Shown: one piece after another, positions 21,252 through 46,921 of the stretch
How the letters are laid out: the number at the start of each line of letters is the position of its first letter
Numbering within the stretch: position 1 is the first letter of the stretch
Origin: an uncultured archaeon
Lineage (GTDB): Archaea > Asgardarchaeota > Lokiarchaeia > Sigyniarchaeales > SOKP01
NCBI GenBank assembly: GCA_964435435.1
Contig: CAYSZJ010000004.1
Span: 66 to 64,065, forward strand
Direction of reading: 5' to 3'
DNA: 64,000 nt
The notes under the pieces: model-generated
Database searches by the model: none
What the model saw: only the letters and a program-made list of their open reading frames with translations
Told to the model about the DNA's origin: nothing
Translations under genes and position numbers: made by a program

Positions 21252-21677
21252 TTCTTTAATTTGATTAGTAAATTCTGTGATTACTTCAGCAAATCTCTTC
21301 CCTTCAGATGCACTGACCCATTCTAAACGCACTCTTTTTGGATCTACTCCTAATTGCTTAATCAGAATATTATGTAATCTTTCGAACCGTTCCTGTGTAT
21401 ATTCATTTCCAGTAATATAATGACAATCTCCAATATGGCAACCACTTACAAGAACTCCATCAGCGCCATTTTTTAAAGCTTTTAGCACAAATGATGGATC
21501 TACTCTTCCAGAGCACATTACCCTTATGATTCGAATATTCGGAGGGTATTGAAATCGTGAGACTCCTGCTAAATCTGCTCCTGCATAACTACACCAGTTA
21601 CAGCAAAATACTAAAATTTTAGGTTCGAATTCTTCTTTTATTACTTTTTTTCTTGATCGCGACATCTTCTTATTCAC
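21231..21677 (-). CDS. mvhD: MvhD-type [2Fe-2S] electron-transfer subunit (methyl-viologen-reducing hydrogenase delta subunit family), Cys form
   Basis: 148 aa. 'FCCNWCSYAGADLAGVSRFQYP', 'VMCSGRVDP', 'SGCHIGDCHY'. Overlaps the hdrA stop by 8 nt. Confidence 0.9.
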   Translation of the reverse strand: MNKKMSRSRKKVIKEEFEPKILVFCCNWCSYAGADLAGVSRFQYPPNIRIIRVMCSGRVDPSFVLKALKNGADGVLVSGCHIGDCHYITGNEYTQERFERLHNILIKQLGVDPKRVRLEWVSASEGKRFAEVITEFTNQIKELGPFKP

Positions 21678-26060: not shown

Positions 26061-26307
26061 TTTAGTTGATTAACAGTAGTTTTAACAATTTGAACTTTTA
26101 ATGAATAGATAAAAAATAGAAAGAATTTATTTTTTCTGATTAGGTTTTATAACTCTATTGTCAAACGAGTATTGGATTTTATTATCAGCTGATATGTTCC
26201 AATTCTTCTATTTTGTATTTAATTCTATACTTCCTTTAATTAAGCACTTAAATTTAAAATTATTTACATAGTGAAAAAGCTATGATAAGAATTTAATCAA
26301 ATTAATG

Positions 26308-26808
26308 TTAATAAACAGAAAAAGTCTCTAATGCCTTTATAGTAATTATTTTAATTACAATCAATAAAATCGATAATAATCCCCAATAAAAACCAGGTAA
26401 TATTTGTGTACTTGTATGAGATTCCCAAATATAATAATATTCTTCTCCTGTCCAGATGTATACTAGCTTAGGTATAATAAGGCAAACTAACAAACCTAAA
26501 GTCATCAATACTAAACTAAAATAATATAGGTTTGAACTATCAAAATTTCTATATAAAATAAATTGAGTAAATACACCCTGTAAAAAGAAAATAGATAAAA
26601 CTATATTAACAGATATCCCAAGAATACTATTGTAAGGATAATTAAATATACCATAATTCCAGACTATTTTGAAAGGATCGGAATTTTCAAATTCCTGAAG
26701 ATACCATATTACTTGAAAAATTCCAAATAAAATAGTTAGAATAGCGCTAAGAAGAATGAACGAATTGAAAATTAATTTAATTATTATAGATTTTTTTGAA
26801 TGTTCCAT
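26308..26808 (-). CDS. Small multi-pass membrane protein, unknown function
   Basis: 166-aa ORF with about 5 hydrophobic helices, 129 nt downstream of the orphan hdrA. Confidence 0.45.
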   Translation of the reverse strand: MEHSKKSIIIKLIFNSFILLSAILTILFGIFQVIWYLQEFENSDPFKIVWNYGIFNYPYNSILGISVNIVLSIFFLQGVFTQFILYRNFDSSNLYYFSLVLMTLGLLVCLIIPKLVYIWTGEEYYYIWESHTSTQILPGFYWGLLSILLIVIKIITIKALETFSVY

Positions 26809-26937
26809 TGTTTTTGATATTTAAGTCAAATAATAATATGATTATAAATTCAAAAGTATAATTTAAATGTAATTAAAACTCTATTATCAAATGTGAAAGT
26901 GTAAGGTTAGGTGCGTCAAATTCTTTTTAATATAATC

Positions 26938-29900: not shown

Positions 29901-30018
29901 TTCCTCCAATTGAAGGTGTTTTTTCTACTAAATAAACTTTAAACCCTAATTCAGTTAAATCTAAAGAACTTTGTATCCCTGCTATTCCACCACCAATAAC
30001 TAACACTGATCCTTCCAT
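26938..30018 (-). CDS. hdrA: Long double-module HdrA-like flavoprotein, Cys form (orphan copy with no adjacent mvhD or hdrD-like gene)
   Basis: 1026 aa, colinear with 21670..24780 and 37388..40438. Most positions are identical over long stretches, e.g. 'MEGSVLVIGGGIAGIQ', 'RFIVASCTPRTHESLFQETCQEAGLNKYLFEMVNIRDQCSWVHM'. Confidence 0.9.
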   Translation of the reverse strand: MEGSVLVIGGGIAGIQSSLDLTELGFKVYLVEKTPSIGGRMAQLDKTFPTNDCSLCILAPKMVEVFRNPNIELMTYHEVQKVSGKPGNFVVSVLKKPRYIDETKCKGCGDCAVSCPKIEFPNIFDMNLGKRKSVYIPFPQAVPPIYLIDPELCLKLTKGVCGVCEKVCKAEAIDYEQKPQEIKLNVGAIVVATGYDVLGEELTSRWGYNYKNVVSALEYERMLSASGPFGGHILRPSDENEPEIIAFIQCAGSRDIREGIPYCSSVCCMYTAKEAIITKEHSENSKCFVFRHDVRAYGKNFYEFTQRAQEEYGVKYFQTKISRIIEDPEMNDLVIHYEDLKTGEFKDFNANLVVLATPLVPSAGTKELAKVLDIELDDYNFFKEKSYFTKSLSSKEGIFLAGFCQGPMDIPETVADASGVASQIATLLNSFKFTEINERDIEVPEKEVKETGIPRIGVLICHCGINIGKYIDIPQVIEHIKGLPNVVFCEDNLYSCSSDSQERIKEVIKEYNLNRFIVASCTPRTHESLFQETCQEAGLNKYLFEMVNIRDQCSWVHMTEKELATEKAIDLIRMGVAKSRLLKPQEEMKLKITQTALVIGGGISGMTAALNIANQGFNVYLIEKEKYLGGNLRFLNMLYPTQEDASILLNETIEKVDQNKNIHIFLNSNLKDVKGYIGNYNVSLIDSDNKIHELKIGTIIVATGGQELKPNEFFEYRYTNHNVITQLQLEQKLKDEDKSWLDKLNHITTLLCVNARQEKGITYCSNICCESAIKNINILKELKHDLKLIVLYRDLQMAKKEFESYYRERRKDAIFLRYDLDAPPTIKESNSGTSKFEIKVFDTNLQDNIKFETDLIVLSTPMIPADNLDELAKMLKVPLDKNGFFLEAHVKLRPLDFATDGIFLCGCAQWPKNIQDSISQANGAAGRASRFLSAKEIITSGLIAEVDSDLCIGCGTCEEACSYNAIELIQVMKEFEEVSLPIKKSSVNSGLCKGCGTCAVNCPVGAISIKHYDFEQINAMIKTLAI

Positions 30019-33118: not shown

Positions 33119-33550
33119 TTAAGTTGCTTGTAATGGTCCTAATTTTTTAATTTTATTAGTAAATTCAGTTATTACTTCAGCAAATCGTTTTCCTTCAGAT
33201 GCACTTACCCATTCAAGTCTAAATCTTTTATCAAGATTAAACATTTTCAGAACTTCTTGAAAACGTTCAAATCTATCTCTCGCAAATTCATTTCCCTTTA
33301 AGTAGTGACAGTCACCAATATGACATCCTGTTACAATGACTCCATCAATGCCATCTTTAAATGCCTCTAAAATAAAAGCGGGGTCTACTCTACCAGAGCA
33401 CATCACCCTCACTATCCTAATAGTAGAGGGATATTGAAATCGTGAGACCCCAGCTAAATCTGCACCAGCATAACTACACCAATTACAACAAAAACACAAT
33501 ATATTTGGGTGAAAATCCTTTTTGCTTACTTTATTTTTTGACTTAGACAT
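33119..33550 (-). CDS. mvhD: MvhD-type [2Fe-2S] subunit, Cys form
   Basis: 143 aa. 'FCCNWCSYAGADLAGVSRFQYP', 'VMCSGRVDP', 'TGCHIGDCHY'. Starts 18 nt downstream of hdrA. Confidence 0.9.
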   Translation of the reverse strand: MSKSKNKVSKKDFHPNILCFCCNWCSYAGADLAGVSRFQYPSTIRIVRVMCSGRVDPAFILEAFKDGIDGVIVTGCHIGDCHYLKGNEFARDRFERFQEVLKMFNLDKRFRLEWVSASEGKRFAEVITEFTNKIKKLGPLQAT

Positions 33551-33568
33551 ATGTCAATACCTAATAAT

Positions 33569-36500
33569 TTAACTTTGGACTAATAGGGCAGAAATCATAG
33601 CGTTGATTTGCTCAAAACCAAAATGTTTAATAACTATTGTTGAATTAGGGCATTGCGCACCGCATGTGCCACAACCTTTACAAAGCGCAGGATTTACATG
33701 AGATTTTTTAATAGTAAATGTGATATCTTCAAACACTCGTTCTTCCTCTATTAATTCGATAGCATTAAATTGGCAGACTTCGATACAGCTTCCACAGCCA
33801 ATGCAATTTTCTTCTATTACAACAGCCACAAGCCCAGATGTTACAAGTTTTTCAGCGCTTAAAATTTTAACTGCTTGAGCAGCAGCTCCATTGGATTGTG
33901 CAATTGATTCTCGAAGATCTTTTGGTGAATGTGCACACCCACATAAATATATACCATCTGTTGCAAAATCAATTGGTCTCAATTTAACATGAGCTTCCAA
34001 AAAGAATTTGTCTTCATTAAGTGGAACTTTTAACATTTTTGCTAATTCTTCATTTTCTTTTATGGGTGCTACGAGACCGGTACTTAATACGATTAAATCA
34101 GGATTTATTTCAAGTTTTCCTAAATCTGGATTGTTTACTATTATTTTTAACTCTTTATTTTTAATTTTTAATTCTGGAGGTTTAGCTTCATCAAATCTAA
34201 CGAAGATAACCTTTTTATCTCGTGCTAAGTTATAATATTTTTCTTTAAAACCATACGTTCTAATATCACGATATAGAATCACTATTTCTATATTTGGATT
34301 TATTTCTTTTGCTTTTAACGCATTTTTAATAGCTTCTGAACAGCAGATTCTGCTACAATATGGGTGGTCTTCATTTCTGGATCCAATGCATTGAATCATA
34401 ACTATTGATTTCAATCCTTTTACTTTATCTGTAGTAAAAAGATCTTTTTCAAATTCAGTTTGGGTTATAATTCTTTGATCTTTCCCAAAATTATATTCCT
34501 TTGGTTGATATTCTTTTGCTCCTGTTGCTACAATTATTATTCCATGATCAAGATCAACACTTTTGTTATTATTTCCGTAGCTTACATTTGTGGAAAAATT
34601 TCCAATATATCCTGAAATTGAATTGATTTGAGCATTTTTAAATACTTGGATAAGTTGATTATCTTCAACACTTTTAATTAAATTTTTAAGATATTCCTGA
34701 ATATCATCATTTTCAAGGGTTCGATAAATATTTTTAGCAAATCCACCTAGAGAATCTTCCTTTTCAATTAAGAATACTTCAAAACCTTGAGAAGCTAGAT
34801 TTAATGCTGCTGACATTCCAGATACTCCCCCACCTATTATTAGACCTTTATTTATTACATTGATTTCTTGTTCCTGTAAGGGGATTAATTGTCTAGCCTT
34901 TGCTACTGACATTCTCAATAGATCTTTTGCTTTTGTTGTTGCATTTTCAGCTTCGTGCATATGAACCCATGAGCATTGATCTCGAATATTAACCATTTCA
35001 AAAAGGTATTTATTTAGACCAACTTCTCTTATGGTCGCTTGAAATAAAGGTTCATGAGTTCTTGGAGTGCAAGAGGCAACTATAACTCTATTAAGTTGAT
35101 TTTGTCTTATTTTTTCTTTAATATTAGTTTGAGTGTCAGCAGAACAAGTATATAGATTATGTTCCGCATAAACTACATCGGGTAAAGTCTTAACATATTC
35201 CACAACTTCAGGAACATTAACTACACCCCCGATATTTATCCCACAAAGACATATAAATACACCTATTCGTGGTGGTTGATCGCTTACATCTAATTCTTCA
35301 GGAAGTTCTTTTTTCGAGATTAATTTATTTCTTGCTTCTGACAGGAGAACATTCACGCGTCCTGCAGCTGCACTTGCTTCGATAACAGTTTCTGGAATAT
35401 CTTTAGGTGCTGCAAATGCTCCACAAACATAAATTCCAGGGTTTGAAGTCTCTACGGGAGTGAAAGTATCAGTTTTGCAAAAACCATATTCATTTAACTC
35501 GATATTTAATTTCTGTGCTAATTCTTTTGCTCTTTGATTAGGTTGCATTCCTACCGAAAGAACAATAAGGTTAAAAATTTCTTCAACAATTCTTCCATTT
35601 TCTGTCTCATAATAAACTTTCAAATCTTTAGAATCCGGGATCTCTTTAATAGAAGATATTCTACGTCTAATATATCTTACTCCATACTCTTTTCTTGCTC
35701 GTTCAATATATTTGTCAAAATTTTTACCGTATGCTCGGATATCCATCGTAAAAATGGTTGGTTCTACAATATCCATGTGTTCTTTAGCAATAACCGCTTC
35801 TTTTGTAGTATACATACAACAAACAGAAGAACAATAATCAATACCATGCTTTCTATCTCTTGAACCAATACATTGTAAAAATGCTATTTTTTTAGGAATA
35901 ATTCCATCAGAAGGGCGAAGTATTAAACCTGCGTGTGGGCCACTAGCGCTTAATATCCGTTCAAATTCAGTACTAGTGATTACATTTAAATATTTACCAT
36001 AACCAAGTTGAGTTAAAGGAGTTGGATCATACTCATCAAATCCAGTTGCCAGTATTACCGCTCCTACATTAAGCTGAACATTTTCATCTTGAAGTTCATA
36101 ATTTATTGCTTCGGCTTTACATATTCCTTCACAAACTCCACAACCTACACATTTGTCTTTATTAATTGAAAAAACTAAAGGAACAGCCTGAGGAAATTTC
36201 ACTGAGATTGCTGTTTTGTTTGAGAGCCCTTTATTAAAAGTGTCGATTGCTTCTATAGGGCATTTTTGAGCACATAATCCACAGCCTGTACATTTATTTT
36301 GATCCAAATAAAGTGTCTTTTGAGTTAAATCAACTATAAAATTTCCAGGTTCTCCTTCAATTTTTTCTATATTTGAGTTTATTAAAATATCGATATTTTC
36401 ATGACGACCAGTTTGTACTAATTTCGGAGCAAGAATGCATATAGCACAATCATTAGTTGGAAAAGTTTTGTCTAATTGAGACATTACTCCTCCTATACTT

Positions 36501-36610
36501 GTTGTGGATTCAGCTAGATAAACCTTATATCCTGAATCTGCTAAATCTATGGATGATTGAATACCAGCAATTCCGCCACCAATGACTAAAACAGCACCGA
36601 CTTTTTCCAT
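33569..36610 (-). CDS. hdrA: Long double-module HdrA-like flavoprotein, Cys form (most divergent long copy)
   Basis: 1013 aa with the same architecture as the other long copies: 'VIGGGIAGIQ', 'FPTNDCAICILAPK', 'CTGCGLCAQKCP', 'VFICLCGINIG', 'ASCTPRTHE', 'VNIRDQCSW', 'CIGCGSCIEVC', 'CKGCGTCGAQCP'. Confidence 0.9.
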   Translation of the reverse strand: MEKVGAVLVIGGGIAGIQSSIDLADSGYKVYLAESTTSIGGVMSQLDKTFPTNDCAICILAPKLVQTGRHENIDILINSNIEKIEGEPGNFIVDLTQKTLYLDQNKCTGCGLCAQKCPIEAIDTFNKGLSNKTAISVKFPQAVPLVFSINKDKCVGCGVCEGICKAEAINYELQDENVQLNVGAVILATGFDEYDPTPLTQLGYGKYLNVITSTEFERILSASGPHAGLILRPSDGIIPKKIAFLQCIGSRDRKHGIDYCSSVCCMYTTKEAVIAKEHMDIVEPTIFTMDIRAYGKNFDKYIERARKEYGVRYIRRRISSIKEIPDSKDLKVYYETENGRIVEEIFNLIVLSVGMQPNQRAKELAQKLNIELNEYGFCKTDTFTPVETSNPGIYVCGAFAAPKDIPETVIEASAAAGRVNVLLSEARNKLISKKELPEELDVSDQPPRIGVFICLCGINIGGVVNVPEVVEYVKTLPDVVYAEHNLYTCSADTQTNIKEKIRQNQLNRVIVASCTPRTHEPLFQATIREVGLNKYLFEMVNIRDQCSWVHMHEAENATTKAKDLLRMSVAKARQLIPLQEQEINVINKGLIIGGGVSGMSAALNLASQGFEVFLIEKEDSLGGFAKNIYRTLENDDIQEYLKNLIKSVEDNQLIQVFKNAQINSISGYIGNFSTNVSYGNNNKSVDLDHGIIIVATGAKEYQPKEYNFGKDQRIITQTEFEKDLFTTDKVKGLKSIVMIQCIGSRNEDHPYCSRICCSEAIKNALKAKEINPNIEIVILYRDIRTYGFKEKYYNLARDKKVIFVRFDEAKPPELKIKNKELKIIVNNPDLGKLEINPDLIVLSTGLVAPIKENEELAKMLKVPLNEDKFFLEAHVKLRPIDFATDGIYLCGCAHSPKDLRESIAQSNGAAAQAVKILSAEKLVTSGLVAVVIEENCIGCGSCIEVCQFNAIELIEEERVFEDITFTIKKSHVNPALCKGCGTCGAQCPNSTIVIKHFGFEQINAMISALLVQS

Positions 36611-37431
36611 TATTTCGCCTCCTTAATTGATATGAATGTGGGGATTTCTTCATATATTTTATCAAGATCAACTAATCCTCTTTGCCTTAAAGTGACAATA
36701 TGATTTAGTACTTTATATGGCTCTACTTGAATTTCTTTAGATATTTCTGGTACTGATTTACCCTTATCTTTAATTTTTAGTAATATTTTATGACGGATAA
36801 ATTCTTTATGTAAAGCATCATCAAGAATTTCTTCAAATTCTTCTTTTTGTATTTTCTCATTATAGACATTACCTTCTGTAGTAATTTGTCTTTCTCTGCT
36901 GACTAAGGTCCTAAGTCTAGAATCAGATAATACAGATTTAATCACATCAAAATCTTCAGATAATTGTTTTCTCAATTTCTTATTTTTTATTGGAGAGGGA
37001 CCTAGATTGATTATATGTTCATTAAATTCATTTACAATCTTGGCAAACCTATTACCCTCGGAAGCCGAGACCCAGTCTAGGCGAAAACGCTCAGAATACC
37101 CAACATAGTCTAGTAATTTACTAAGCATGTTCATTTTCATCTCTGCTTCATAATTGCCGGTCATATAATGACAATCTCCTGGGTGACAACCTAAAACGAG
37201 CACCCCATCAATATTTTTTAAAAAAGCTTCAGCTACAAAAAGAGGATCAACTCTCCCACTGCACATTACTCTTATAATTCTAATATTAGGAGAATATTGA
37301 ATTCTACTTACACCAGCAAGATCAGCTCCAGCATAAGAACACCAATTACATAAAAATCCTAAAATTTTTGGTTTAAATGCCAACTGTTTATTCTCCTCCA
37401 TAGGCAATAATTTCTGATAGAATTTGTTCAT
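36610..37431 (-). CDS. MvhD domain fused to a C-terminal winged-helix (wHTH) domain
   Basis: 273 aa. N-terminal 'FLCNWCSYAGADLAG', 'VMCSGRVDP' and 'LGCHPGDCHY' mark the MvhD domain. C-terminal 'IRHKILLKIKDKGKSVPEISKEIQVEPYKVLNHIVTLRQRGLVDL' is wHTH-like. The start may be the internal ATG at 37401. Its stop overlaps the next hdrA ATG (TAATG). Confidence 0.8.
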   Translation of the reverse strand: MNKFYQKLLPMEENKQLAFKPKILGFLCNWCSYAGADLAGVSRIQYSPNIRIIRVMCSGRVDPLFVAEAFLKNIDGVLVLGCHPGDCHYMTGNYEAEMKMNMLSKLLDYVGYSERFRLDWVSASEGNRFAKIVNEFNEHIINLGPSPIKNKKLRKQLSEDFDVIKSVLSDSRLRTLVSRERQITTEGNVYNEKIQKEEFEEILDDALHKEFIRHKILLKIKDKGKSVPEISKEIQVEPYKVLNHIVTLRQRGLVDLDKIYEEIPTFISIKEAK

Positions 37432-40400
37432 TTGTAAAATGATAAACTGTTATTGCATTTTCTGGACAGCTTGCACCACATACACCACATCCTTTACAAA
37501 GTAACTTGTTTATAACCACTTTATCCTCTTCATTCTTTGATATAGCGTTATAGGGACAAAGTTTTATACAAACTTTACATCCTACGCATAACTCGTTGTT
37601 CACTTCCGCTACTAAACCTGAGCCAATAATATCTTTTGAACTTAAAAATCTGCTTGCCCTTCCAGCAGCTCCATTTGCTTGAGTGATTGATTCTTGAATA
37701 TGTTTTGGCCAATGAGCACATCCACATAAGAAGACTCCGTCCGTAGCAAAATCTACTGGTCTCAGTTTAGCATGTGCTTCTAAGAAAAAACCATGCCTAT
37801 CTAAAGGTACTTTAAGCATTTTTGCCAATTCTTCTGAATTATCCGTAGGAATCATAGGAGGCGATAAAATAATTAAATCTGTTTCAAATGTGATAATATC
37901 CTGCAAATTCGTGTCAAATATTTTTATCCCGTATTTTTCAGGTTTATTGCTTATTTTCGTGATTTCTGGTGGTTTATTTAAATCATATCTTAGAAGTATA
38001 GCATCTCCTCTTCGATCAAAAAGATATTCTTCAAATTCTTTTTTGGCCATTTGAAAATCTCTATAAAGAACAATCATTTCGAGATCAGGCTTTAATTGTT
38101 TTAAGATATTCAAATTTTTAATAGCAGTTGCACAACATATATTCGAACAGTATGTAATTCCTTCTTTTTCTCTCGCATTTATGCATAAAATTGTTGTAAC
38201 ACGCTTAGTACTATCAAACCAAGAGTGGTCTCTTTGATTCAATCGTTTTTCTAGTTCCAATTCTGTAATAACATTGTTATTTTTATCACCATATTGATCG
38301 AATCTTATAGGTTTTAATTCTTGACCTCCAGTAGCAACGATAATAACACCAACTTTCAGTTCACTAACTTCATTTTTGGAGTCAATAATAGAGACATCAA
38401 AATTGCCAATATATCCTTTTACATCTTTTACTCTAGACTCTAAGCAAACTTGAATTTTTTCATTTTTCTTAACATTTTCTTTTATCTCTTTTAAAAATTT
38501 TGAAGCATCTTCTTGAGTTGGATATAAAAGGTATAAATCATTCAAAATTCCTCCAAGAATCTTCTCTTTTTCTACAAGATAGACTGTATATCCTTGGTTA
38601 GCAATATTCAAGGCTGCAGTCATTCCAGATATACCGCCACCAATTATTAATGCCTTTGGTATAACTGATAATTTTTGTTCTTGTTGTGATCTCAATAATC
38701 TAGATTTCGCAACAGTCATTTCAATTAAATCTATAGCCTTCTCGGTAGCAAGCTCCTTTTCTGTCATATGAACCCAAGAACACTGATCACGAATATTTGC
38801 CATTTCAAAAAGGTACTTGTTTAATCCTGCTTCTTGGCAAGTTTCTTGAAATAAGGATTCATGCGTTCTTGGTGTGCAAGATGCCACAATAAATCTATTT
38901 AAATTATATTCATCAATTACTTCCTTAATTCTTGCTTGAGAATCACTAGAACAGGAATATAAATTATCTTCACAAAAAACGACATTAGGCAATGATTTTA
39001 TATGTTCTACAACTTGAGGTATATCAATATATTTTCCGATATTAATTCCACAATGACAGATAAGTACGCCAATTCTAGGTTCTTCTGTTATATCGACTTC
39101 TTTTTCTGGTATATCAAATACTTTTTCTTTTACTTGGGTATATTTTGCGGAACTGAGTAAAGCTGCCACTTGTGAAGCGACTCCACTGGCATCAGCTACA
39201 GTTTCTGGTATGTCCATTGGACCTTGACAAAATCCAGCCAAGAAGACACCCTTTTTCGAAGATATTGATTTAGTAAAATGATTTTTTTCCTTAAAGAAAT
39301 TATAATCATCTAAGTTAATATCTAAAATATTTGCTAATTCTTTGGTTCCGCTAGAAGAAACTAGAGGTGTAGCTAATACAACTAAATTTGCTCGAAAATT
39401 ATTAAGTAATCCAGATTGTAAATCTTCATAATGAATAATCAAATCTTTTGTCTCAGGATCCTCTATGATTTTACTAATTTTAGTATGGAAATATTTTACT
39501 CCATATTCTTCTTGAGCTCTTTGAGTAAATTCATAGAAGTTTTTCCCATATGCCCTAATATCGTGTCTAAAAACAAAACATTTGGAATTTTCTGAGTGTT
39601 CTTTTGTGATAATTGCTTCTTTAGCAGCATACATGCAGCATACGCTTGAACAGTAAGGAACTCTTTGTTGCAGATCTCTTGAACCCGCACATTGAATAAA
39701 GGCAATATTATCTGGTTCTTGTTTATCACTTGGGCGTAGAACGTGTCCGCCAAATGGTCCAGATGCACATAAAATTCTCTCATATTCTAAACCATTTACC
39801 ACGTTCTCATAATTATAACCCCATCTAGAGGTTAATTCCTCTCCAAACATATCAAATCCAGTTGCTACTACAATTGCTCCGACATTTAATTCGATTTCTT
39901 GATGTTTTTGTTCGAAATCTATTGCTTCCGCGCTACAAACTTTTTGACATACTCCGCATACATCTTTAGTCAATTTTAGACACATATTAGGATCAATTAA
40001 ATAGATAGGAGGTACTGCTTGAGGAAATGGGATATACACAGATTTCCTTTTACCTAGATTCATATCAAAAATATTTGGGGCTTCGATCTTTGGACATTTA
40101 GTAGCACAATCACCACATCCTTTGCAAAGATCTTCATTTATATAACGAGGTTTTTTAAGGACGGTTACTTTAAAATCTCCTGGTTTTCCTTCAACTTTTT
40201 GGACTTCATGATAAGTCATTAGTTCAATATTGGGATTACGAAATACTTCAACCATTTTTGGCGCTAAAATGCATAAACTACAATCTAAAGTAGGAAAGGT
40301 TTTATCTAGTTGAGCCATTCTACCCCCAATTGAAGGTGTTTTTTCTACTAAGTAAACTTTAAAACCCAATTCAGTTAAATCTAAAGAAGTCTGTATCCCT

Positions 40401-40438
40401 GCTATTCCCCCTCCAATGACACACACAGATCCCTCCAT
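37388..40438 (-). CDS. hdrA: Long double-module HdrA-like flavoprotein, Cys form
   Basis: 1016 aa, colinear with 21670..24780 and 26938..30018. Its ATG overlaps the stop of the upstream hdrD-like gene by 1 nt. Confidence 0.9.
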   Translation of the reverse strand: MEGSVCVIGGGIAGIQTSLDLTELGFKVYLVEKTPSIGGRMAQLDKTFPTLDCSLCILAPKMVEVFRNPNIELMTYHEVQKVEGKPGDFKVTVLKKPRYINEDLCKGCGDCATKCPKIEAPNIFDMNLGKRKSVYIPFPQAVPPIYLIDPNMCLKLTKDVCGVCQKVCSAEAIDFEQKHQEIELNVGAIVVATGFDMFGEELTSRWGYNYENVVNGLEYERILCASGPFGGHVLRPSDKQEPDNIAFIQCAGSRDLQQRVPYCSSVCCMYAAKEAIITKEHSENSKCFVFRHDIRAYGKNFYEFTQRAQEEYGVKYFHTKISKIIEDPETKDLIIHYEDLQSGLLNNFRANLVVLATPLVSSSGTKELANILDINLDDYNFFKEKNHFTKSISSKKGVFLAGFCQGPMDIPETVADASGVASQVAALLSSAKYTQVKEKVFDIPEKEVDITEEPRIGVLICHCGINIGKYIDIPQVVEHIKSLPNVVFCEDNLYSCSSDSQARIKEVIDEYNLNRFIVASCTPRTHESLFQETCQEAGLNKYLFEMANIRDQCSWVHMTEKELATEKAIDLIEMTVAKSRLLRSQQEQKLSVIPKALIIGGGISGMTAALNIANQGYTVYLVEKEKILGGILNDLYLLYPTQEDASKFLKEIKENVKKNEKIQVCLESRVKDVKGYIGNFDVSIIDSKNEVSELKVGVIIVATGGQELKPIRFDQYGDKNNNVITELELEKRLNQRDHSWFDSTKRVTTILCINAREKEGITYCSNICCATAIKNLNILKQLKPDLEMIVLYRDFQMAKKEFEEYLFDRRGDAILLRYDLNKPPEITKISNKPEKYGIKIFDTNLQDIITFETDLIILSPPMIPTDNSEELAKMLKVPLDRHGFFLEAHAKLRPVDFATDGVFLCGCAHWPKHIQESITQANGAAGRASRFLSSKDIIGSGLVAEVNNELCVGCKVCIKLCPYNAISKNEEDKVVINKLLCKGCGVCGASCPENAITVYHFTNEQILSEIIAYGGE

Positions 40439-41718
40439 TATTCTTTAACCTCTACTTTTTTATCAGGATCTATTACATTTATCATATCAACCAAAAATTC
40501 TGAGAAATCCATTATTTCTATTGAAGTGAAATCATCATAATCTTTTTTTAGGCAAGTTAAGTGTATACGGCATTTTGGACATGACGTTATCATTTTTGTT
40601 CCAACAGTTTTAGCTTCTGAAAGACGTTTATATCGTAAAGCTTTGGATCTCTCATTACAATTCATCCAAGAATTAACTCCACAACAATAGGAATTTTCTT
40701 TATTATGCTCCATTTCCTTAAATTCGTAACCTAATCTTTCTAAATGATGAAATATGTCTCGAACTTTTTCAATTATATTATTTTCTTTCGGTAAATATCT
40801 ACTTAATCTACAAGGATCGTGATAAGTAAAAGGAATAATTTCGCTAGATTCATTTGGATTCTTAAATTCAATCTTACCTTGCTTCCAATTATCAAAAATG
40901 TATTCAATTATATGTTTAACTTCAAATTTATCATTAAAATCTTCAAATAAATTTGGATAGTCAATTTTAAATGTTCTATAACATTCAGCACAAGCAGTTA
41001 TTATTGTAGAAATCCCTGCTTTTTCAAAATTATTTAAATTTTTCTTTGCTAATTCAATAAACACTTCGAATTTTCCTTGACCCCAATATAAATCATGACC
41101 ACAGCATGTCTCCTCTTTAAGAACTACTATTGGTTCGTTCTCAATTTGGCAAATTATTTTCAGGCTGCTTTCTGCTATAGAATCTGAATTTTCAAATTCA
41201 AAATTAAAAAAGGGTAAACATCCAACATAAAATAAAATATTTCCTTTCTCTGAAATTTTACAATCTTTAGGAACCCAATCTAAAGGTCTTTCAATTTCAA
41301 TATTATTTTGACTCATTATTTCTGACATCATAGGATAAATGCCTTTATGAGCAATAGAACGATCAACATTTTGAATGTCTTTCATCCTCATTTTATATCT
41401 AGCAATTCGTACAATATCAGCAAAATTTATATCTTTGGGACACATCTGAAGGCAACTATTGCACATTAAACAGTCCCATAATAACCCACTCTTAATTACA
41501 TCATCTTCAAAACCTTCTAATATCATCTGAATAATTCTGCTAGGTGTAAATTTTTGAACTTTACTAATTTGACATACACCTGAGCAACGAGCACATTGAT
41601 AACATTTTTTCAATAAGTTTCTTAGATCTGGCTCGTATATTTTTCTTAAAAAATAATCAGTATCATTAGTATTTTGTTTTATTTTCTTATTTCTTTCTGT
41701 TTCTGTTATGCAACTCAC
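40438..41718 (-). CDS. HdrD-like protein (HdrC-type ferredoxin + double CCG domain), paralogue of 24780..26060
   Basis: 426 aa. 'CYQCARCSGVC', 'CLMCNSCLQMCP', 'FYVGCLPFF...CCGHDLYW', 'YHDPCRLSR...CCGVNSW'. Confidence 0.85.
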   Translation of the reverse strand: MSCITETERNKKIKQNTNDTDYFLRKIYEPDLRNLLKKCYQCARCSGVCQISKVQKFTPSRIIQMILEGFEDDVIKSGLLWDCLMCNSCLQMCPKDINFADIVRIARYKMRMKDIQNVDRSIAHKGIYPMMSEIMSQNNIEIERPLDWVPKDCKISEKGNILFYVGCLPFFNFEFENSDSIAESSLKIICQIENEPIVVLKEETCCGHDLYWGQGKFEVFIELAKKNLNNFEKAGISTIITACAECYRTFKIDYPNLFEDFNDKFEVKHIIEYIFDNWKQGKIEFKNPNESSEIIPFTYHDPCRLSRYLPKENNIIEKVRDIFHHLERLGYEFKEMEHNKENSYCCGVNSWMNCNERSKALRYKRLSEAKTVGTKMITSCPKCRIHLTCLKKDYDDFTSIEIMDFSEFLVDMINVIDPDKKVEVKE

Positions 41719-41722
41719 ACCC

Positions 41723-42835
41723 TTATTTTAAACTATCCATAAATTTTTCTTTTCGTCTTATTTTTAACTGAGAAAATTTAGAAATTAACTCTTTCATATT
41801 GTTTTTAGTTATAGTATCATGTTCTAAGCATTTAATTGCTTTAGCGTCTAATACTTTATGAAGTAATTGTTTACCTTTTTCAGTGCGAGGAATTACAGTT
41901 GTATATCTATCTGGTGAGCTAAGACCCCCAAATGAAATATCTGAATAAACATTAGTAAAATCACTACAAGAATGACAAGCGGGACGGATGTAATTACCTA
42001 ATTTTTCAAAGGAAATATGGATTATTTTTTCTTTCGAGCTTTTGTCTTCTAACTTTAAAATTAGATCCTCTTTAATATTTATCTTTTTAATATTTTCAAA
42101 TTTTATCTTAAAATCTTTTTCAAATATCTCTATTTGAGATTTATCAAATAGAAAATTATGGTAGCAAAATAACCCTAAACAAATTTCAATATATTCTGAA
42201 GGGGTAACACCCAAATTTTGCATACATCTAATTGTATAAATTTGACAAGGCGTTCCTACTATTGCTAATTTTTTAAATTTAAAATGGTTAAATTTTGGAA
42301 TTGAGCGCGTATAAGTGCAAAATCTTTGAATCTCGTCTAGTTGTGAAGTTATTTCCAGCTTTGTCCCGGAAGCTTTAAATAATTCATCCTTATTATCTGC
42401 GAACATAGATTCCCTAGAAAATGGAGCATCAAATTTTGATACTATTGCTCCATCAATTATTTTATTTTCTAATAAGTAATTTATTATTGTATTTACTATA
42501 CCTCCATCAGTTCCAATTTTTAAAAATTCAGGATCATTAGTTTGGCAAGAATAAATATCTTCAAAATTACCAAGGGGCATGGAGGCAAAATTTGTAAATT
42601 GATAAGTTTTATTAAGATCTTCATCCAAAACATGAGTTTGAGGGCAAATATAATAACATATACCACATTCAAGGCATTCCTCCTTATTTATATATTCCGG
42701 AGGTGAAAAGGGCTCTTTAAAGCCGATTACATTTTCAAATGTTGCTGAACAGAAAGAAGTGCATCCCCCACATTCTTGACAAATACCTTTTTCATGGACT
42801 TCCTTAATTAAATCTTGAAATGTTTTTGAACTCAT
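41723..42835 (-). CDS. FrhB/FdhB-family flavo-iron-sulfur protein with N-terminal 2x[4Fe-4S] ferredoxin
   Basis: 'CQECGGCTSFC' and 'CLECGICYYICP' are ferredoxin motifs. 'DGGIVNTIINYLLENKIIDGAIV' is the FrhB N-domain and 'IVGTPCQIYTIR' the FrhB C-domain. The start is set at the internal ATG 42835, which avoids a 53-nt overlap; the track ORF begins at 42904. Confidence 0.8.
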   Translation of the reverse strand: MSSKTFQDLIKEVHEKGICQECGGCTSFCSATFENVIGFKEPFSPPEYINKEECLECGICYYICPQTHVLDEDLNKTYQFTNFASMPLGNFEDIYSCQTNDPEFLKIGTDGGIVNTIINYLLENKIIDGAIVSKFDAPFSRESMFADNKDELFKASGTKLEITSQLDEIQRFCTYTRSIPKFNHFKFKKLAIVGTPCQIYTIRCMQNLGVTPSEYIEICLGLFCYHNFLFDKSQIEIFEKDFKIKFENIKKINIKEDLILKLEDKSSKEKIIHISFEKLGNYIRPACHSCSDFTNVYSDISFGGLSSPDRYTTVIPRTEKGKQLLHKVLDAKAIKCLEHDTITKNNMKELISKFSQLKIRRKEKFMDSLK

Positions 42836-42851
42836 GATAATAATTTTATTT

Positions 42852-44348
42852 TTATTCTTTTTCCAGTTTAATTGGTTTGCAATTTTTTCTTTTAGTACCA
42901 GCAATCCTTTCTAATAAGGGTTGTCCTGGTTTAACATCTTTTAAACTTTTTGATTCTATTATCCCTGCTTTAATTGCCTCTTTATAGATTTTTTCACCTT
43001 TTTTATTTCGCGTAATTACTGTAGACCATCCACTAGGTGAGCCAATTGAACCAATGCTGATATCAGCATAATCACATGTTAGATCTTCGCAAAAATGACA
43101 GTTATGGCGTGCATATGATTTAACGTCGTTTAAGGGTACTCTTAAATCCTCCCCCGAATCTAAGTATATAATGAATTTACCCCCACTTATATCCATTTTT
43201 GTTACTTTATTAAAATCTTTATCAAATTGTTCTTTAATTAAGTTAAGTATGCCCTCATAGGGAAATGATTCCATGCAAAAAAGCCCAATTCTATATTTAA
43301 TATTCTTGAAAAATGGTAAACCACTTGGAAATAAATATCCTTTCTCTAAAGCATTCATCATACAAGGAACACCTACAACCGCGATATTTTCATACTTTTT
43401 TGATTGATCTATTATGCTTAATGTTGAGGCGTTAGCGTATTTTGTGCCACCAGTCTTATATAAATCTTTAATATCTTCTACTATAATTGGCTCTGGTTTC
43501 CATAATTCCTTTGAATGTTTTACTGCTACAATTGCATTAACTAATTTATTTTTAAGTAAGTATTCAAGTAAAGAAGTGACAATCCCTCCATCTTGTCGTA
43601 CTTTTTTAATCTCATCCTTAGTTGTTGTAGCAGAATAACTATTAATATAACCATTAATTTTTTCTGAAAATTTTAAAGATTTATCAAGTTTATTTATACT
43701 TTTACCTGCTTGTTCAATTGAAAATGATCTCGGGCAAACAGAATAACATAACCCGCATTTCATACAAGCATCATTATCGATCTCTAATGTATCTGCTGTG
43801 ACTGTAATAGCATTTACAGGGCAAATTGATGAGCACCACCCACACTGACAACATACTTCAGAATCAAATACAATAGAAACGGGTTCAAAAAAATGTTCAA
43901 TGAAACCACCAAGTATATCTTTAACTTGATATCTATAGAAACGTTCTTCTTCCTCGACTTCTTTTTCTTCTCCCTTTACTTTCTTGATAACAGTTTTAGT
44001 TTTTATTTCAACACGTTCTTCAACATATCCTTGTTCTTTAAGGTAAATAACATCACGAATTACGTTTTCTGGAGGAAATTCTTTTATAATTTTGGCAATT
44101 TCCTCTAAAAATAACGGTTTCTTACCTTTTAATCCTTCTAACACTAATTTACGCTCTGTTTCAGCATCGACCATAGCATCTAGAATTTCATAAAATTTCT
44201 CCTCAGAATATTTACCAATTTTCGAAATATCTTCTTTTGCTTCGAAAAACGCTCTAATTTGAAAGTTTTCGACTGCTTTATAGGTAGCATCCATTAAATT
44301 CTTTGGAGATATCCCATCAAAATTAATATCTTTTACAATTTGAACCAT
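42852..44348 (-). CDS. FrhB/FdhB-family protein with ~150-aa N-terminal extension containing a wHTH-like segment
   Basis: 498 aa. 'CCQCGWCSSICP' and 'CMKCGLCYSVCP' are ferredoxin motifs. Also 'DGGIVTSLLEYLLKNKLVNAIV' and 'VVGVPCMMNALEKG'. N-terminal 'LVLEGLKGKKPLFLEEIAKIIKEFPPENVIRDVIYLKEQGYVEE' is wHTH-like. Confidence 0.8.
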   Translation of the reverse strand: MVQIVKDINFDGISPKNLMDATYKAVENFQIRAFFEAKEDISKIGKYSEEKFYEILDAMVDAETERKLVLEGLKGKKPLFLEEIAKIIKEFPPENVIRDVIYLKEQGYVEERVEIKTKTVIKKVKGEEKEVEEEERFYRYQVKDILGGFIEHFFEPVSIVFDSEVCCQCGWCSSICPVNAITVTADTLEIDNDACMKCGLCYSVCPRSFSIEQAGKSINKLDKSLKFSEKINGYINSYSATTTKDEIKKVRQDGGIVTSLLEYLLKNKLVNAIVAVKHSKELWKPEPIIVEDIKDLYKTGGTKYANASTLSIIDQSKKYENIAVVGVPCMMNALEKGYLFPSGLPFFKNIKYRIGLFCMESFPYEGILNLIKEQFDKDFNKVTKMDISGGKFIIYLDSGEDLRVPLNDVKSYARHNCHFCEDLTCDYADISIGSIGSPSGWSTVITRNKKGEKIYKEAIKAGIIESKSLKDVKPGQPLLERIAGTKRKNCKPIKLEKE

Positions 44349-44399
44349 ATTTCCATCCTTTTGGATTACATCTTTCTATAAAAAATTATATTTTTGATT

Positions 44400-44455
44400 G
44401 AATACTAATTTAAAACCCCTTCCTTCGCAAGGTGAGTCCTCTTATAACTAATATT
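44400..44455 (-). promoter_or_regulatory. Candidate SECIS-type RNA hairpin in the 3' region after Sec-type vhuD
   Basis: This is the only GC-rich island in the only sizeable (119-nt) gap of the nine-gene block. The minus-strand RNA AAUAUUAGUUAUAAGAGGACUCACCUUGCGAAGGAAGGGGUUUUAAAUUAGUAUUC folds by hand into a long imperfect hairpin. The apical stem is CCUU/AAGG with loop GCG, followed by an A/AA internal loop, then CUC/GGG, then an A-U/G.U lower stem. Confidence 0.35.
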
Positions 44456-44467
44456 TTTTTATAAGAA

Positions 44468-44929
44468 TCATTCTACAGGGGTAGTTATAACTTGTTTTGT
44501 TTCAACTTTCGTCTCTTTGTTTATTAGGTTAAGTGGATTTAGCCCAGCTTTTCTTACCTTTTCTAAAGCATCTTCCACACTTCTTACAAATTTCTCACTT
44601 TCTGCGCCACTGAGCCAATACATATTGATTCTTTGATTTCCGAATCCTCTAGATTCTAAGATTCTATTTGCTAATTCAACGTGTCTTTCAGCTGTGAAAT
44701 TACCATTTTTAAATTGACATTCATTAGGTCGTCAACCAACAATCATAACACCATCAGCTCCCGCGCGAATACTATATAAGATGTGCTTAATATCAATTCT
44801 ACCAGTACATCTTACTTTGATAATTTTTATAGCAGGTGTATATTTCAATCGAGAAACTCCGGCTAAATCAGCTGCACTATATCCTCACTTTAAGCAAGCA
44901 AAAACAATTATACTATATGTATTTTCCAT
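44468..44929 (-). CDS. vhuD: VhuD-type MvhD homologue with two in-frame UGA (selenocysteine) codons
   Basis: Hand translation of the minus strand gives 153 aa: 'MENTYSIIVFACLKUGYSAADLAGVSRLKY...VRCTGRIDIK...GADGVMIVGURPNECQF...'. UGA at 44885..44887 aligns with the 2nd Cys of CNWC. UGA at 44732..44734 aligns with the Cys of GCHxGDC. A GGAGGUGG Shine-Dalgarno-like sequence lies about 12 nt upstream of the ATG. This gene is not in the ORF track because of the UGAs. Confidence 0.85.
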
Positions 44930-44935
44930 GTCTGT

Positions 44936-46921
44936 TTAACCACCTCCTAAAAGACCATCAATTTCAGCAAATAATTGATGATCTCGATAGTATCTTATAT
45001 CAATAGCTTGTGTAGGACAGCATGTAGCACATATACCACATCCATCACAATTTATCTCATCAACAAACGCTCCGATATCTACCTCAATCCTTATGGCATT
45101 TTTTGGGCACTCCTGTTCACATCGTCTACACGAAATGCAAAATTCACTATCAACCTCGGCAGTTATCAGTTCAATATCAATTTCTCCAGGCGCTGTTAGT
45201 TCAGCTACTTTACTAGCTGCAGCTCTAGCTTGAGAAACGGAATAAGAAATATTTTTTGGTCCCTGCGCAAATCCAGCTATAAAAATGCCTTTTGACTTTG
45301 TTTCTTGTGGCATTAGCCCAAAGTGTGATTCTGTAAGAAACCCGTATGTGTTAGTATCAAGATTTAAAACTTGAGCAATTTGCTGTGTACCTTTTGAAGG
45401 AAGTGCTGCTGTGGATAGAACGACTAAATCAGCATCAATTTTTACAATCTTATCTGTGAGAGATGAATATACGCGAACTTTCACATTTTTTGTTTCAGGA
45501 TCTTCAGAGATCTCACCAACTTTTCCACGAATCATTCTAATGCCTGCATCTTTAGCTCGTTCATAGTACTCTTCAAATCCTTTTTCAGGAGTTCTTATGT
45601 CAATATAACATATTGTAATATTTGCATCTGGAAATTCCTCTAAGAGTAATCTTCCATTTTTTAGAGCAAGCATACAACAAACACCACTACAATAAGTTCG
45701 TTCAGTTTCTCGGCTTCCTACACATTGTATAAATACAATTTCTTTAGGTTTCTTATTATCTGAAATTCGGTGCACATAGCCTTCAAGTGGCCCATTTGGG
45801 GCTAATATTCGTTCTAACTGAGGTTGAGTTATAACATTTTCAAACTCTCCATATCCATATTCACCAAAAGGTTCATAAATATCCCATCCAGTTGCTATAA
45901 TAATCGTTCCAACATCAATATTAACTTCTTTTGATTCTTGACTAAAATCAATAGCATCTAATTCACAGGAATCTACACAGGAGAAACATTCAACACAAAC
46001 ATTTCTATCTATATCATATAAAAATGGTACTGCTTGACCAAATGGTATATCAATTGCTTTTCGTGCCCCTAAATGTTCATCGAAATAATTTGTCGTATAA
46101 ACTGGACAGACTTCAGCACATGCTCCACATCCATTACATTCGTCTGTAGTAAATCGTGGTTTCCTTTCAATTATTACGTTGTAATTACCAACATACCCTT
46201 CTATATTCTTTACTTCGCTATAACTTAATAATTCAATATTTTCGTTTCTATTGACCTCTAACATTTTTGGACCGCAAATTCATATGGCACAGTCATCTGT
46301 AGGAAATGTTCTGTCCAATTGAGACATTCTCCCTCCTATCGTAGTTTTTTGATCAACTAAATATACCTTGATGCCTTGATTCGCAAGATCTAGAGCTGCA
46401 TTCATCCCGCCAATCCCACCTCCTACTACCAATGTAGCTTTTGTAACAGGAACAGTCTTAATAGGAACTGGCTCTAATCGTTTAGCTCTTTCAATACCGC
46501 TTTTCACTAGGATTTTTGCTTTTTCTGTAGCCTCTTCTTTACTATCTGTGCACCAAGAGCAATGTTCTCTCACATTTTGGCTACAAGAGTCATTCTATAT
46601 TAATACTCTTATATTTACCATTTGAAAATAATATGGATTTAAATCCGTTTTAGCAATTGTACCCCTATAAATAACCTCATGAGTACGAGGAGTTCAAGCA
46701 GAAGCTACAATTCTGTTTAAATTCTTCTCTTTTATATCTTCAATTATTTCGTTTTGAGCATTATCAGTTCAAAGAAATGGGTTCTTCTTTGATATTAATA
46801 TCTCATCTCCAAATTCATTTTTCACGAAATCAGTTAGTTCATCACAATCTACTTTAGTTCTTATATTTACACCTCATTGACAAGCATAGTATCCAATCCG
46901 ATGATTTTCAGTATTACTCAT
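44936..46921 (-). CDS. hdrA: Canonical-length HdrA with four in-frame UGA (selenocysteine) codons and one in-frame UAG inside a 39-nt insertion
   Basis: One frame runs from ATG 46921 to TAA 44936..44938 (46921, 46573 and 46264 are congruent mod 3). The UGAs are at 46874..46876 (CHCG->CQUG), 46769..46771 (YSCS->FLUT), 46694..46696 (ASCTPRTHE->ASAUTPRTHE) and 46280..46282 (DCSLCILAPK->DCAIUICGPK). The downstream 442 aa hold the FAD, inserted-ferredoxin and C-terminal ferredoxin domains. A GAGGUGGA sequence lies about 14 nt upstream of the ATG. Confidence 0.8.
46568..46606 (-). other. 39-nt paralogue-specific in-frame insertion (contains UAG 46595..46597) within Sec-type hdrA; flanked by identical AGA codons, 5' part folds into a 9-bp hairpin
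   Basis: The alignment reads ...MVNIR[VLI*NDSCSQNVR]EHCSW..., against ...VNIRDQCSW... in all four long paralogues. Hairpin arms 46605..46613 and 46582..46590 pair as UAUAAGAGU/ACUCUUGUA. Confidence 0.75.

Follow-up and report, generated by a model that had tools for sequence, protein, structure and literature searches.

The benzoyl-CoA reductase of class II (BCRII) from Geobacter metallireducens, Bam[(BC)2DEFGHI]2, contains a subunit, BamE, that has been described as a fused HdrA dimer, with its bifurcating flavin adenine dinucleotide (FAD) in the N-terminal half (Lys280, Cys59-Cys62), a non-bifurcating FAD (Gln768) in the second half, and both C-terminal and inserted ferredoxin domains. The same study describes BamF, an MvhD protein more than 100 residues longer than usual that carries a winged helix-turn-helix (HTH), and BamD, an HdrBC-like fusion in which the distal non-cubane cluster is degraded (bioRxiv 10.64898/2026.04.10.717634). 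In the present work we analyse a nine-gene block of related composition from an uncultured Lokiarchaeia archaeon, located at positions 33119-46921 on the minus strand of a 64,000-nucleotide stretch of DNA (GenBank assembly GCA_964435435.1, contig CAYSZJ010000004.1, positions 66 to 64,065), which is referred to as the window and has a G+C content of about 30%. The block combines HdrA, MvhD, HdrD-like and FrhB-like proteins, and we consider it somewhat probable, at roughly 0.55, that it encodes a soluble, hydrogenase-independent, F420-linked HdrA-type bifurcating or confurcating assembly with ferredoxin and disulfide partners.

Fused HdrA proteins have been described in other contexts as well. 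The HdrA of Moorella has been called a fused double HdrA by Chadwick et al. (PMC9012536), and a type II HdrA has been defined for methane-metabolising archaea (PMC12054007). For clusters of the composition hdrABC-mvhD-fdhB-Molybdop, F420H2 has been proposed as the mid-potential donor. Some of the type II clusters also contain an added type I hdrA together with an hdrD, and two coupled bifurcations have been proposed (PMC12054007). Clusters of HdrA, FrhB and HdrD have also been described in anaerobic methanotrophic archaea (ANME) (PMC9012536). The Asgard papers that we searched mention only "HdrABC" or "MvhADG-HdrABC", and in one of them Hdr transcripts were seen without Mvh transcripts. In the literature searched, the hydrogenase-free, FrhB-linked fused-HdrA combination has not been described in Asgard archaea. 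The kinds of components are known, and the block is an FrhB-linked Asgard version of the fused-HdrA/MvhD/CCG-subunit bifurcation systems and not a categorically new one.

Searches against Pfam, NCBIfam and the PDB show that all nine genes encode intact redox proteins, and they bear out the gene order and the domain assignments given in a first-pass annotation, which had been made by a model from the sequence alone. In the direction of the minus strand, the genes are hdrA, encoding a type I four-domain HdrA selenoprotein (44936-46921); vhuD, encoding an MvhD-type selenoprotein (44468-44929); frhB1 (42852-44348); frhB2 (41723-42835); the hdrD-like gene (40438-41718); a long hdrA of 1016 codons (37388-40438); a long mvhD (36610-37401); a second long hdrA of 1013 codons (33569-36610); and a short mvhD of 143 codons (33119-33550). 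The genes are tightly packed. The one-nucleotide TAATG overlaps noted previously at 40438 and 36610, and at 24780 in a second cluster of the window, are exact, and the intergenic gaps are indeed 4-18 nt for the most part. The gap between vhuD and frhB1 is, however, 119 nt and contains an element resembling a selenocysteine insertion sequence (SECIS), while the start of the long mvhD lies within the upstream hdrA, the overlap being 14 nt from M11, the start chosen by most gene callers, or 44 nt from the ATG at 37431. Among the 58 open reading frames (ORFs) of at least 90 amino acids in the window, neither subunit of a hydrogenase, large or small, was found, nor was HdrB or HdrC as a stand-alone protein, the only proteins of the latter kind being fused and HdrD-type, in agreement with the initial observation.

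The block is a real, conserved operon of Asgard archaea (Promethearchaeota). Proteins on more than 60 contigs from metagenome-assembled genomes of Promethearchaeota share 70-91% identity with the long HdrA, and those of a few Deltaproteobacteria about 45%. A tblastn comparison of the window proteins with 67 loci (cited here by L numbers) shows the core hdrA(Sec)-vhuD(Sec)-frhB-(frhB)-hdrD-long hdrA-mvhD, where Sec denotes selenocysteine, to be collinear in about 26 Asgard loci. In seven further loci the layout is divergent, with hdrA-vhuD-frhB adjoining hdrD-long hdrA-mvhD, and the two modules thus stay together in two layouts. In none of these approximately 33 loci do hydrogenase subunits flank or follow hdrA-vhuD, the neighbours being frhB and hdrD-long hdrA-mvhD instead. 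The additional pair of long hdrA and long mvhD is confined to the window and the loci most closely related to it (L001-L010), and frhB2 is absent from several loci (e.g., L003, L005, L022, and L026). The second cluster of the window (21231-30018, minus strand) is conserved in L011, L013, L015, L017, and other loci. The description of the module as unusual, made at the outset, has to be tempered, because the fused double HdrA belongs to a known family, the order hdrD-hdrA-mvhD is that of bamDEF, and the block is common in Asgard genomes.

The long HdrAs were examined by alignment with the solved HdrA of Methanothermococcus (PDB 5ODC). Each polypeptide contains two thioredoxin-reductase-like FAD modules (TrxR1 and TrxR2), with the GxGxxG motif and the C-x3-CC cluster motif both present twice, and three segments can be matched. 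Residues 6-342 correspond to residues 147-478 of the 5ODC HdrA, that is, the FAD domain with the FPTxDCxxC motif and the inserted ferredoxin domain, the match for TrxR1 of the 1016-residue protein having 389 bits and an i-Evalue of 3e-115. Residues 452-606 correspond to residues 2-156, the N-terminal Cys/FeS (iron-sulfur) domain, with the N-domain at about 452-580, and residues 840-1010 to residues 473-646, the C-terminal ferredoxin domain. The N-terminal module has hence proved to be HdrA-like, as is needed for the tandem HdrA architecture that had been put forward. The alignment also agrees with the proposed division of motifs between the modules. In TrxR1, FPT(L/N)DCxxC is found at residues 48-56 (Cys53 and Cys56 in the 1016-residue protein), together with the inserted ferredoxin domain, while the second module, which has the N-terminal Cys domain as well as the ferredoxin domain at the C-terminus, has YPTQEDAS in its place in the 1016-residue protein and in a 1026-residue HdrA of the second cluster. 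In the 1013-residue protein and in the other, 1036-residue HdrA of that cluster, no second motif of the FPTxDCxxC type was found. The second FAD module retains its own C-x3-CC cluster motif, and each long HdrA has seven FeS motifs. The loss is therefore complementary, module 1 having the Cys197-type motif and no N-domain and module 2 the reverse.

Lys409 and Glu356 of HdrA are the residues by which bifurcating flavin sites have been recognised (PMC12054007). Their equivalents are kept in both modules, as LE(Y/F)ER and CCxYxxK in TrxR1 (E220/K273) and as ELELEK/TEFEK and CCxxxIK in TrxR2 (K774/K762). On the basis of the segment alignment, the loss of the Cys motif in module 2, the FeS motifs, and the Lys/Glu equivalents in both modules, the long HdrA is an asymmetric HdrA "dimer" fused into one chain, where the cluster of the internal N-type domain can be completed by Cys56 from module 1.

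An architecture of this kind is already known from a large family, including BamE, the HdrA of the MetFV-Hdr complexes and the type II HdrA of ANME. In an exhaustive search of representatives, collinear relatives of about 1000 residues were found in more than 100 clusters (at 50% identity), with 34-55% identity to the long HdrA. Relatives of about 1500 residues also exist, and the one examined (L067, 1480 amino acids) carries an NAD(P)-binding domain as an insert. Two paralog types can be told apart among the window's four long HdrAs. The 1016-, 1026-, and 1036-residue proteins share 70-76% identity, whereas the 1013-residue protein is 48-49% identical to these three and 50-54% identical to deltaproteobacterial proteins (compared with L064 and L066), an affinity that hints at gene transfer between domains. 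Between the product of the selenoprotein hdrA and the TrxR1 modules of the long HdrAs, identity is 40-42%. At L038 (13951-16737), a third kind of double HdrA, with 928 residues, follows the mvhD of the core cluster, and paired HdrA-like tblastn matches after mvhD are also seen in L023, L028, and L034.

The likeness to BamDEF, which is drawn here from the published description, extends over several features. The gene order hdrD (40438-41718), long hdrA (37388-40438), and 263-codon mvhD is that of bamD-bamE-bamF. As in BamE, the double HdrA has an N-terminal module of the bifurcating type (Cys-x-x-Cys, Lys), inserted and C-terminal ferredoxin domains, and a total of seven [4Fe-4S] motifs, the MvhD adaptor exceeds the usual length by over 100 residues and has an HTH-type tail (the HTH matches being weak here), and the CCG subunit is an HdrB-HdrC fusion. 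There are also clear differences. The second flavin module has Lys774 here but Gln768 in BamE, the long MvhD has a Cys where BamF has Sec19, and both CCG motifs are complete, in contrast to the degraded distal cluster of the Geobacter BamD. Instead of BamBC, a tungsten aldehyde oxidoreductase (AOR), and BamGHI, the NADH/ferredoxin confurcating unit, the block has the FrhB proteins and the Sec-HdrA/VhuD pair. BamB/BamC and BamGHI genes were found neither in the window nor in the compared loci; the window has no NuoE/F/G-like ORF of the BamGHI type and no NuoF/GltD-type NAD(P)H module, and an AOR-family ORF is absent from the window and from the flanks of L038. Two word-indexed protein searches for the Geobacter BamE and BamF returned only Asgard proteins among the best 120, and no BamE-like chain is present among the PDB sequences searched.

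A second likeness is to the MetFV-HdrABC-MvhD complexes of acetogens (Moorella type), which share the fused double-HdrA family. One representative, P0306, is 39% identical to the long HdrA and collinear with it over residues 4-1011. It belongs to a cluster of the order hdrC-hdrB-metF-hdrA-mvhD-metV-metF, in which mvhD follows hdrA with a 1-nt overlap, and it adjoins CCG and ferredoxin-type subunits. There, MetF/MetV form the substrate module and HdrB and HdrC are proteins in their own right, while here no methylenetetrahydrofolate reductase genes are present, the FrhB proteins are, and a fused HdrD-type subunit replaces HdrB and HdrC. Neither this relationship nor that to BamDEF was recognised among the analogies drawn by the first-pass annotation.

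The two FrhB proteins are members of the F420-dependent FrhB/FdhB/FpoF family by their domains, and F420 binding is predicted for them. Both contain FrhB_N and FrhB_C over their full length (Pfam E-values from 1e-15 to 3e-41). FrhB1 consists of an N-terminal domain of about 155 residues, a 2x[4Fe-4S] ferredoxin domain, and FrhB_N/FrhB_C; it matches NCBIfam PRK09325 with 272 bits, against a cut-off of 269, and its best PDB match is FrhB (3ZFS_C, E=8e-58). FrhB2, with 370 residues from its ATG in an ORF that reaches a TTG at 42904, has a ferredoxin domain followed by FrhB_N/FrhB_C; it falls below the NCBIfam cut-off, and its best PDB matches, over the full length, are 8RJA_E (E=3e-42) and 8RIU_B. 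The closest solved relatives of the FrhB-like proteins are accordingly F420-dependent enzymes (FrhB, Fsr, FdhB, and 8RJA/8RIU).

The HdrD-like protein gives PDB matches to HdrC and HdrB chains and has a pair of cubane motifs together with two CCG motifs, both complete, CX37CCX36CXXC and CX41CCX33CXXC; Pfam and the reading of the motifs confirm that this HdrC-HdrB fusion is the sole CCG carrier of the block. The MvhD-type domains match the NCBIfam HdrA2 model, and FlpD is recognised with E=4e-52 in the long and E=2e-54 in the short MvhD. The long MvhD (263 residues from M11, 273 from the ATG at 37431) is BamF-like and has a tail of about 120 residues C-terminal to the FlpD domain. Of the earlier assignment of this protein as an MvhD-winged HTH fusion, the longer tail with HTH-like features holds, but the matches to HTH_5, HTH_40, and HTH_20 are weak (E=7e-4, below the Pfam cut-off), and the HTH assignment is based on these matches together with the description of BamF. 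Homologs of the long MvhD carry PF14493/PF12840, and the protein aligns end to end with deltaproteobacterial MvhDs of 251-253 residues. An AlphaFold2 model based on 22 aligned sequences was of low quality, with a mean pLDDT of 56.

A further resemblance is to the type II HdrA clusters of ANME and methanogens. In both cases, one of the two modules of a double-TrxR HdrA lacks Cys197 and the other the N-terminal domain, Lys409 and Glu356 equivalents are found in both modules, an FrhB/FdhB-family F420 module and MvhD are present, and a further type I HdrA and an HdrD may be added, an F420H2-dependent double bifurcation having been proposed for the type II systems. The domain order is, however, reversed relative to HdrA3/4 of ANME, where it is the N-terminal half that has the N-domain and lacks Cys197 (PMC9012536). 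Moreover, the present block has no Molybdop/FdhA-like gene, no HdrBC, and two FrhB paralogs, its type I HdrA and the MvhD of the latter are multi-selenocysteine proteins, and its host is an Asgard archaeon without methane metabolism.

The MvhADG-HdrABC and FdhAB-MvhD-HdrABC complexes (5ODC, 7BKB, and 8RVU) share with the block the HdrA domains and motifs, the MvhD adaptor, and, in Methanococcales, the adjacency of hdrA(Sec) and vhuD. They differ in that the block has no catalytic subunit of a hydrogenase or formate dehydrogenase and no separate HdrB or HdrC, and in that its additional HdrAs are fused pseudo-dimers. For HdrA2B2C2 of Methanosarcina acetivorans, F420H2 is likewise the proposed mid-potential donor, with ferredoxin and a disulfide as acceptors; in that system, the HdrA-MvhD fusion protein is believed to meet F420 directly and without FrhB, while here MvhD is separate and FrhB proteins are present.

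The link to F420 is strengthened by the likeness of the FrhB proteins to solved F420 enzymes, by the docking of the FrhB-family subunit FdhB on MvhD in the Fdh-Hdr structure (PDB 7BKB), and by the HdrA-FdhB model for the ANME type II clusters. Complete F420 biosynthesis has been reported for Lokiarchaeota (PMC8498797). The F420- or deazaflavin-linked bifurcation that had been guessed for the block is the best available explanation; like our functional reading as a whole, it rests on homology and gene order.

From the Fdh-Hdr structure, BCRII, and the ANME type II model, the following mechanism can be suggested. The FrhB subunits would occupy the place held by MvhAG or FdhAB in methanogens and serve as the mid-potential port, exchanging hydride with F420 (about -340 mV), and their FeS clusters would pass single electrons to the [2Fe-2S] MvhD/VhuD adaptors and from there, through the C-terminal ferredoxin domains, to the bifurcating FAD. 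The uphill electron would reach ferredoxin by way of the FeS cluster that Cys56 completes and then the inserted ferredoxin domain, and the downhill electron would pass through the cluster of the TrxR domain to the HdrD-like subunit, whose two intact CCG (non-cubane cluster) sites would deliver it to a disulfide. The reverse direction may also operate, with reduced ferredoxin and thiols yielding F420H2, which would supply the F420-dependent steps of the tetrahydromethanopterin (H4MPT) Wood-Ljungdahl pathway. The Sec-HdrA/VhuD pair might constitute a second HdrA module of the assembly, giving two coupled bifurcation steps, as proposed for the ANME type II clusters (PMC12054007) and shown for BCRII (bioRxiv 10.64898/2026.04.10.717634).

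Several points weigh against the F420-linked assembly. The block has one HdrD-like subunit for three HdrA-type proteins, and hdrA is interrupted by a stop codon in the genome of the window. Certain members of the FrhB family work with partners other than F420. As regards the disulfide substrate, Asgard archaea without methyl-coenzyme M reductase are not known to make coenzyme M (CoM) or coenzyme B (CoB). Finally, MvhADG-HdrABC is encoded in other Asgard genomes (PMC7015854), and the Sec-HdrA/VhuD pair could associate with a distant hydrogenase.

This last point leads to the alternative that survives best, although we regard it as unlikely, namely that the system is dependent on H2 after all, with Sec-HdrA/VhuD docking on a distant Vhu/Mvh [NiFe(Se)] hydrogenase and HdrBC, and with the FrhB proteins either linking it to the F420 pool or forming an Frh-like hydrogenase with distant subunits. 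The adjacency of hdrA(Sec) and vhuD, which is the arrangement of Methanococcales, speaks for such docking; in Methanococcus, hdrA-vhuD precede vhuGAU, and hdrBC are located apart. In addition, Sec-containing MvhA/VhuU proteins are common in Asgard genomes (PMC11227280), and the Asgard archaeon MK-D1 has been reported to encode MvhADG-HdrABC (PMC7015854). On the other hand, the approximately 33 loci discussed above place frhB and hdrD-long hdrA-mvhD, and never hydrogenase subunits, beside hdrA-vhuD, and no hydrogenase was found in the 64-kb window or in the flanks of L038.

Less probable again is that the block holds independent enzymes that are merely co-located and share regulation, for example HdrA-VhuD-FrhB1 as one complex and FrhB2-HdrD-long HdrA-MvhD, with the duplicated pair, as another. 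Such a division is suggested by the restriction of the additional long hdrA-long mvhD pair to the window and L001-L010, by the loci that lack frhB2, and by the second cluster, which has neither frhB nor hdrA(Sec). It is opposed by the adjacency of the two modules in both gene layouts and by the published Hdr-type systems, BCRII and Fdh-Hdr-Fmd, in which clustered subunits form single supercomplexes. A BCRII-like two-stage machine, in which the low-potential branch would drive a distant AOR-type or acyl-CoA-linked module and the HdrD-like subunit would deliver electrons to an electron-transferring flavoprotein and not to a disulfide, is the least probable of the three and improbable in itself. 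In its favour are the bamDEF-like gene order, the long MvhD with its HTH tail, and an enoyl-CoA hydratase gene (20154-20903) near the second cluster, here and in several loci. Against it stand the lack of BamB/BamC (AOR) and BamGHI (NuoEFG-like) genes in the window and the compared loci, the two intact CCG motifs, unlike in the Geobacter BamD, and the reported Asgard benzoyl-CoA reductases being of class I (PMC8163825).

Returning to the F420-linked assembly, a bolder version of it can be envisaged as a hierarchical two-flavin machine, in which the multi-selenocysteine HdrA/VhuD would stand in series with the BamE-like HdrA/MvhD/HdrD via the two FrhB proteins and would reversibly couple F420, ferredoxin, and a thiol-disulfide pair other than CoM/CoB without hydrogenase, as the main redox hub of the cell. 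We consider this rather doubtful. If true, it would mean that many "MvhADG-HdrABC" assignments in metabolic models of eukaryogenesis need revision. In this lineage, moreover, the Sec-HdrA would have to be made across or despite an in-frame stop, by a split gene, read-through, or ribosome bypass.

The question matters because the host belongs to the Asgard group, the archaea closest to eukaryotes, and metabolic reconstructions of this group are used in the syntrophy and hydrogen hypotheses for how eukaryotes arose. Those reconstructions usually list many of the hdr and mvhD genes as "MvhADG-HdrABC", i.e., as hydrogen-linked, while a large conserved share of these genes sits in hydrogenase-free assemblies with fused HdrAs, an HdrD-type subunit, and FrhB modules. 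Should the proposed mechanism be right, the passage of electrons among ferredoxin, F420, and a thiol carrier would be a central energy-coupling step of these organisms that does without H2. FrhB is the fourth kind of partner module for the fused-HdrA family, after MetFV, BamBC/GHI, and FdhB-Molybdop. The block is also a defined nine-subunit target for expression, assay, and cryo-electron microscopy from cultured Lokiarchaeia.

The translation of hdrA requires four in-frame TGA codons, at codons 16 (46874-46876), 51 (46769-46771), 76 (46694-46696), and 214 (46280-46282), all at Cys positions. The first three are Cys positions of the N-terminal FeS-cluster domain and the fourth is the Cys197 equivalent. 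With UGA at three Cys positions of the N-domain, the iron-sulfur site would be ringed by several selenocysteines. Orthologs have TGA at matching Cys positions, and codon 51 alternates between TGA and TGC among 24 of them. Translation and synteny likewise place two in-frame TGA codons at Cys positions in vhuD (44885-44887 and 44732-44734). The gene ends with a TGA at 44468-44470, so that the end at 44470 given in the first-pass annotation is incorrect, the true stop beginning at 44468; hdrA had been identified there as a selenoprotein gene, correctly, but its four UGA codons, the insertion with an in-frame UAG described below, and the SECIS were missed. A general recoding of TGA is ruled out, since TGA terminates six of the 44 ordinary ORFs of the window.

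Directly after vhuD, an 80-nt element (44407-44486, minus strand) common to hdrA and vhuD resembles a SECIS in having two helices, an A-rich apical loop, and an AUGA...GA core, the AUGA of which shares nucleotides with the stop codon of vhuD. Rfam gives no match to a SECIS or any other family, either at the gathering threshold over the whole window or at an E-value threshold over 44250-44600, and the element was therefore identified from an alignment and from counts of paired positions. Across 23 sequences, pairing is seen in 92% of the cells, versus 41-59% when the partner columns are slid; nine pairs have changed on both sides, and the observed values are reached in none of 500 shuffles. A eukaryote-like SECIS shared by hdrA and frhD has been described for Asgard archaea (PMC11227280), and the present element fits, as far as its alignment indicates, the eukaryote-like SECIS of the Asgard HdrA/VhuD selenoproteins.

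The interruption of hdrA is due to a 39-nt insertion (46568-46606), placed between MVNIR and EHCSW, with an in-frame TAG at 46595-46597. In a survey of about 25 hdrA orthologs, it is carried by the window, by L054, with TAA at the same codon, and by L074, where that codon is TTT and the frame is open, and it is absent from the roughly 22 others. All three carriers retain a 9-bp hairpin that the insertion forms with the exon sequence before it. A comparison of the window with L054 gives ratios of nonsynonymous to synonymous substitution rates (dN/dS) of 0.077 for the part upstream and 0.042 for the part downstream of the insertion (dS 0.6-0.85), indicating that both halves of hdrA are functional. 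Three explanations are retained as candidates: a split gene that restarts at an in-frame GTG, which has no Shine-Dalgarno motif; read-through of the stop; and a ribosome hop between matching AGA or AAT codons 39 nt apart.

Four others are ruled out. A bulge-helix-bulge intron is inconsistent with the single 3-nt bulge and with excision that would not restore the frame, pyrrolysine at the TAG with the TAA of L054, a mobile mini-element with the lack of any further copy of the insert sequence in the window and 81 loci, and a decaying pseudogene with the dN/dS of 0.04-0.08 on both sides. The orthologous Sec-hdrA of L006 has a different in-frame insertion in its N-terminal domain (about 3640-3670), which is 30 nt long, encodes KKNLFQIFNT without a stop, and is located just after the first UGA.

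As for the remainder of the window, Pfam searches resolve the second cluster (21231-30018, minus strand) into a long hdrA (1026 amino acids), a 166-residue ORF, an hdrD-like gene (426 amino acids), a long hdrA (1036 amino acids), and an mvhD (148 amino acids). The 166-residue ORF (26308-26808), between the long hdrA and the hdrD, has no Pfam or NCBIfam match and a counterpart in one other locus only (L004, 56% identity). The enoyl-CoA hydratase gene, also on the minus strand, is directly downstream of this cluster; its orthologs (79-82% identity) are present in seven loci, starting about 330-340 nt past an mvhD of the second-cluster type in L042 and L020 and lying 1-3.6 kb from the cluster in L048, L026, and L050. 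A third FrhB-family gene, encoding 496 residues with a ferredoxin domain, lies outside both clusters (60700-62190, plus strand) and has orthologs (69-73% identity) near Hdr clusters in L040 and L055.

At 9201-11288 (plus strand), 10 kb from the second Hdr cluster, a molybdopterin oxidoreductase of the cytoplasmic type (695 amino acids) is encoded, with no adjacent partner subunit; its matches are to formate dehydrogenase alpha and thiosulfate reductase-like models, all under the NCBIfam cut-offs. Genes for small GTPases of the Ras-family and Gtr1/RagA-like kinds, which are among the Asgard "eukaryotic signature" proteins, are located at 8287-8907 and 62268-63210, in keeping with an Asgard origin of the window. 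The RagA-like frame ends at a TGA after 123 residues and seems to continue in another frame (62590-63210).

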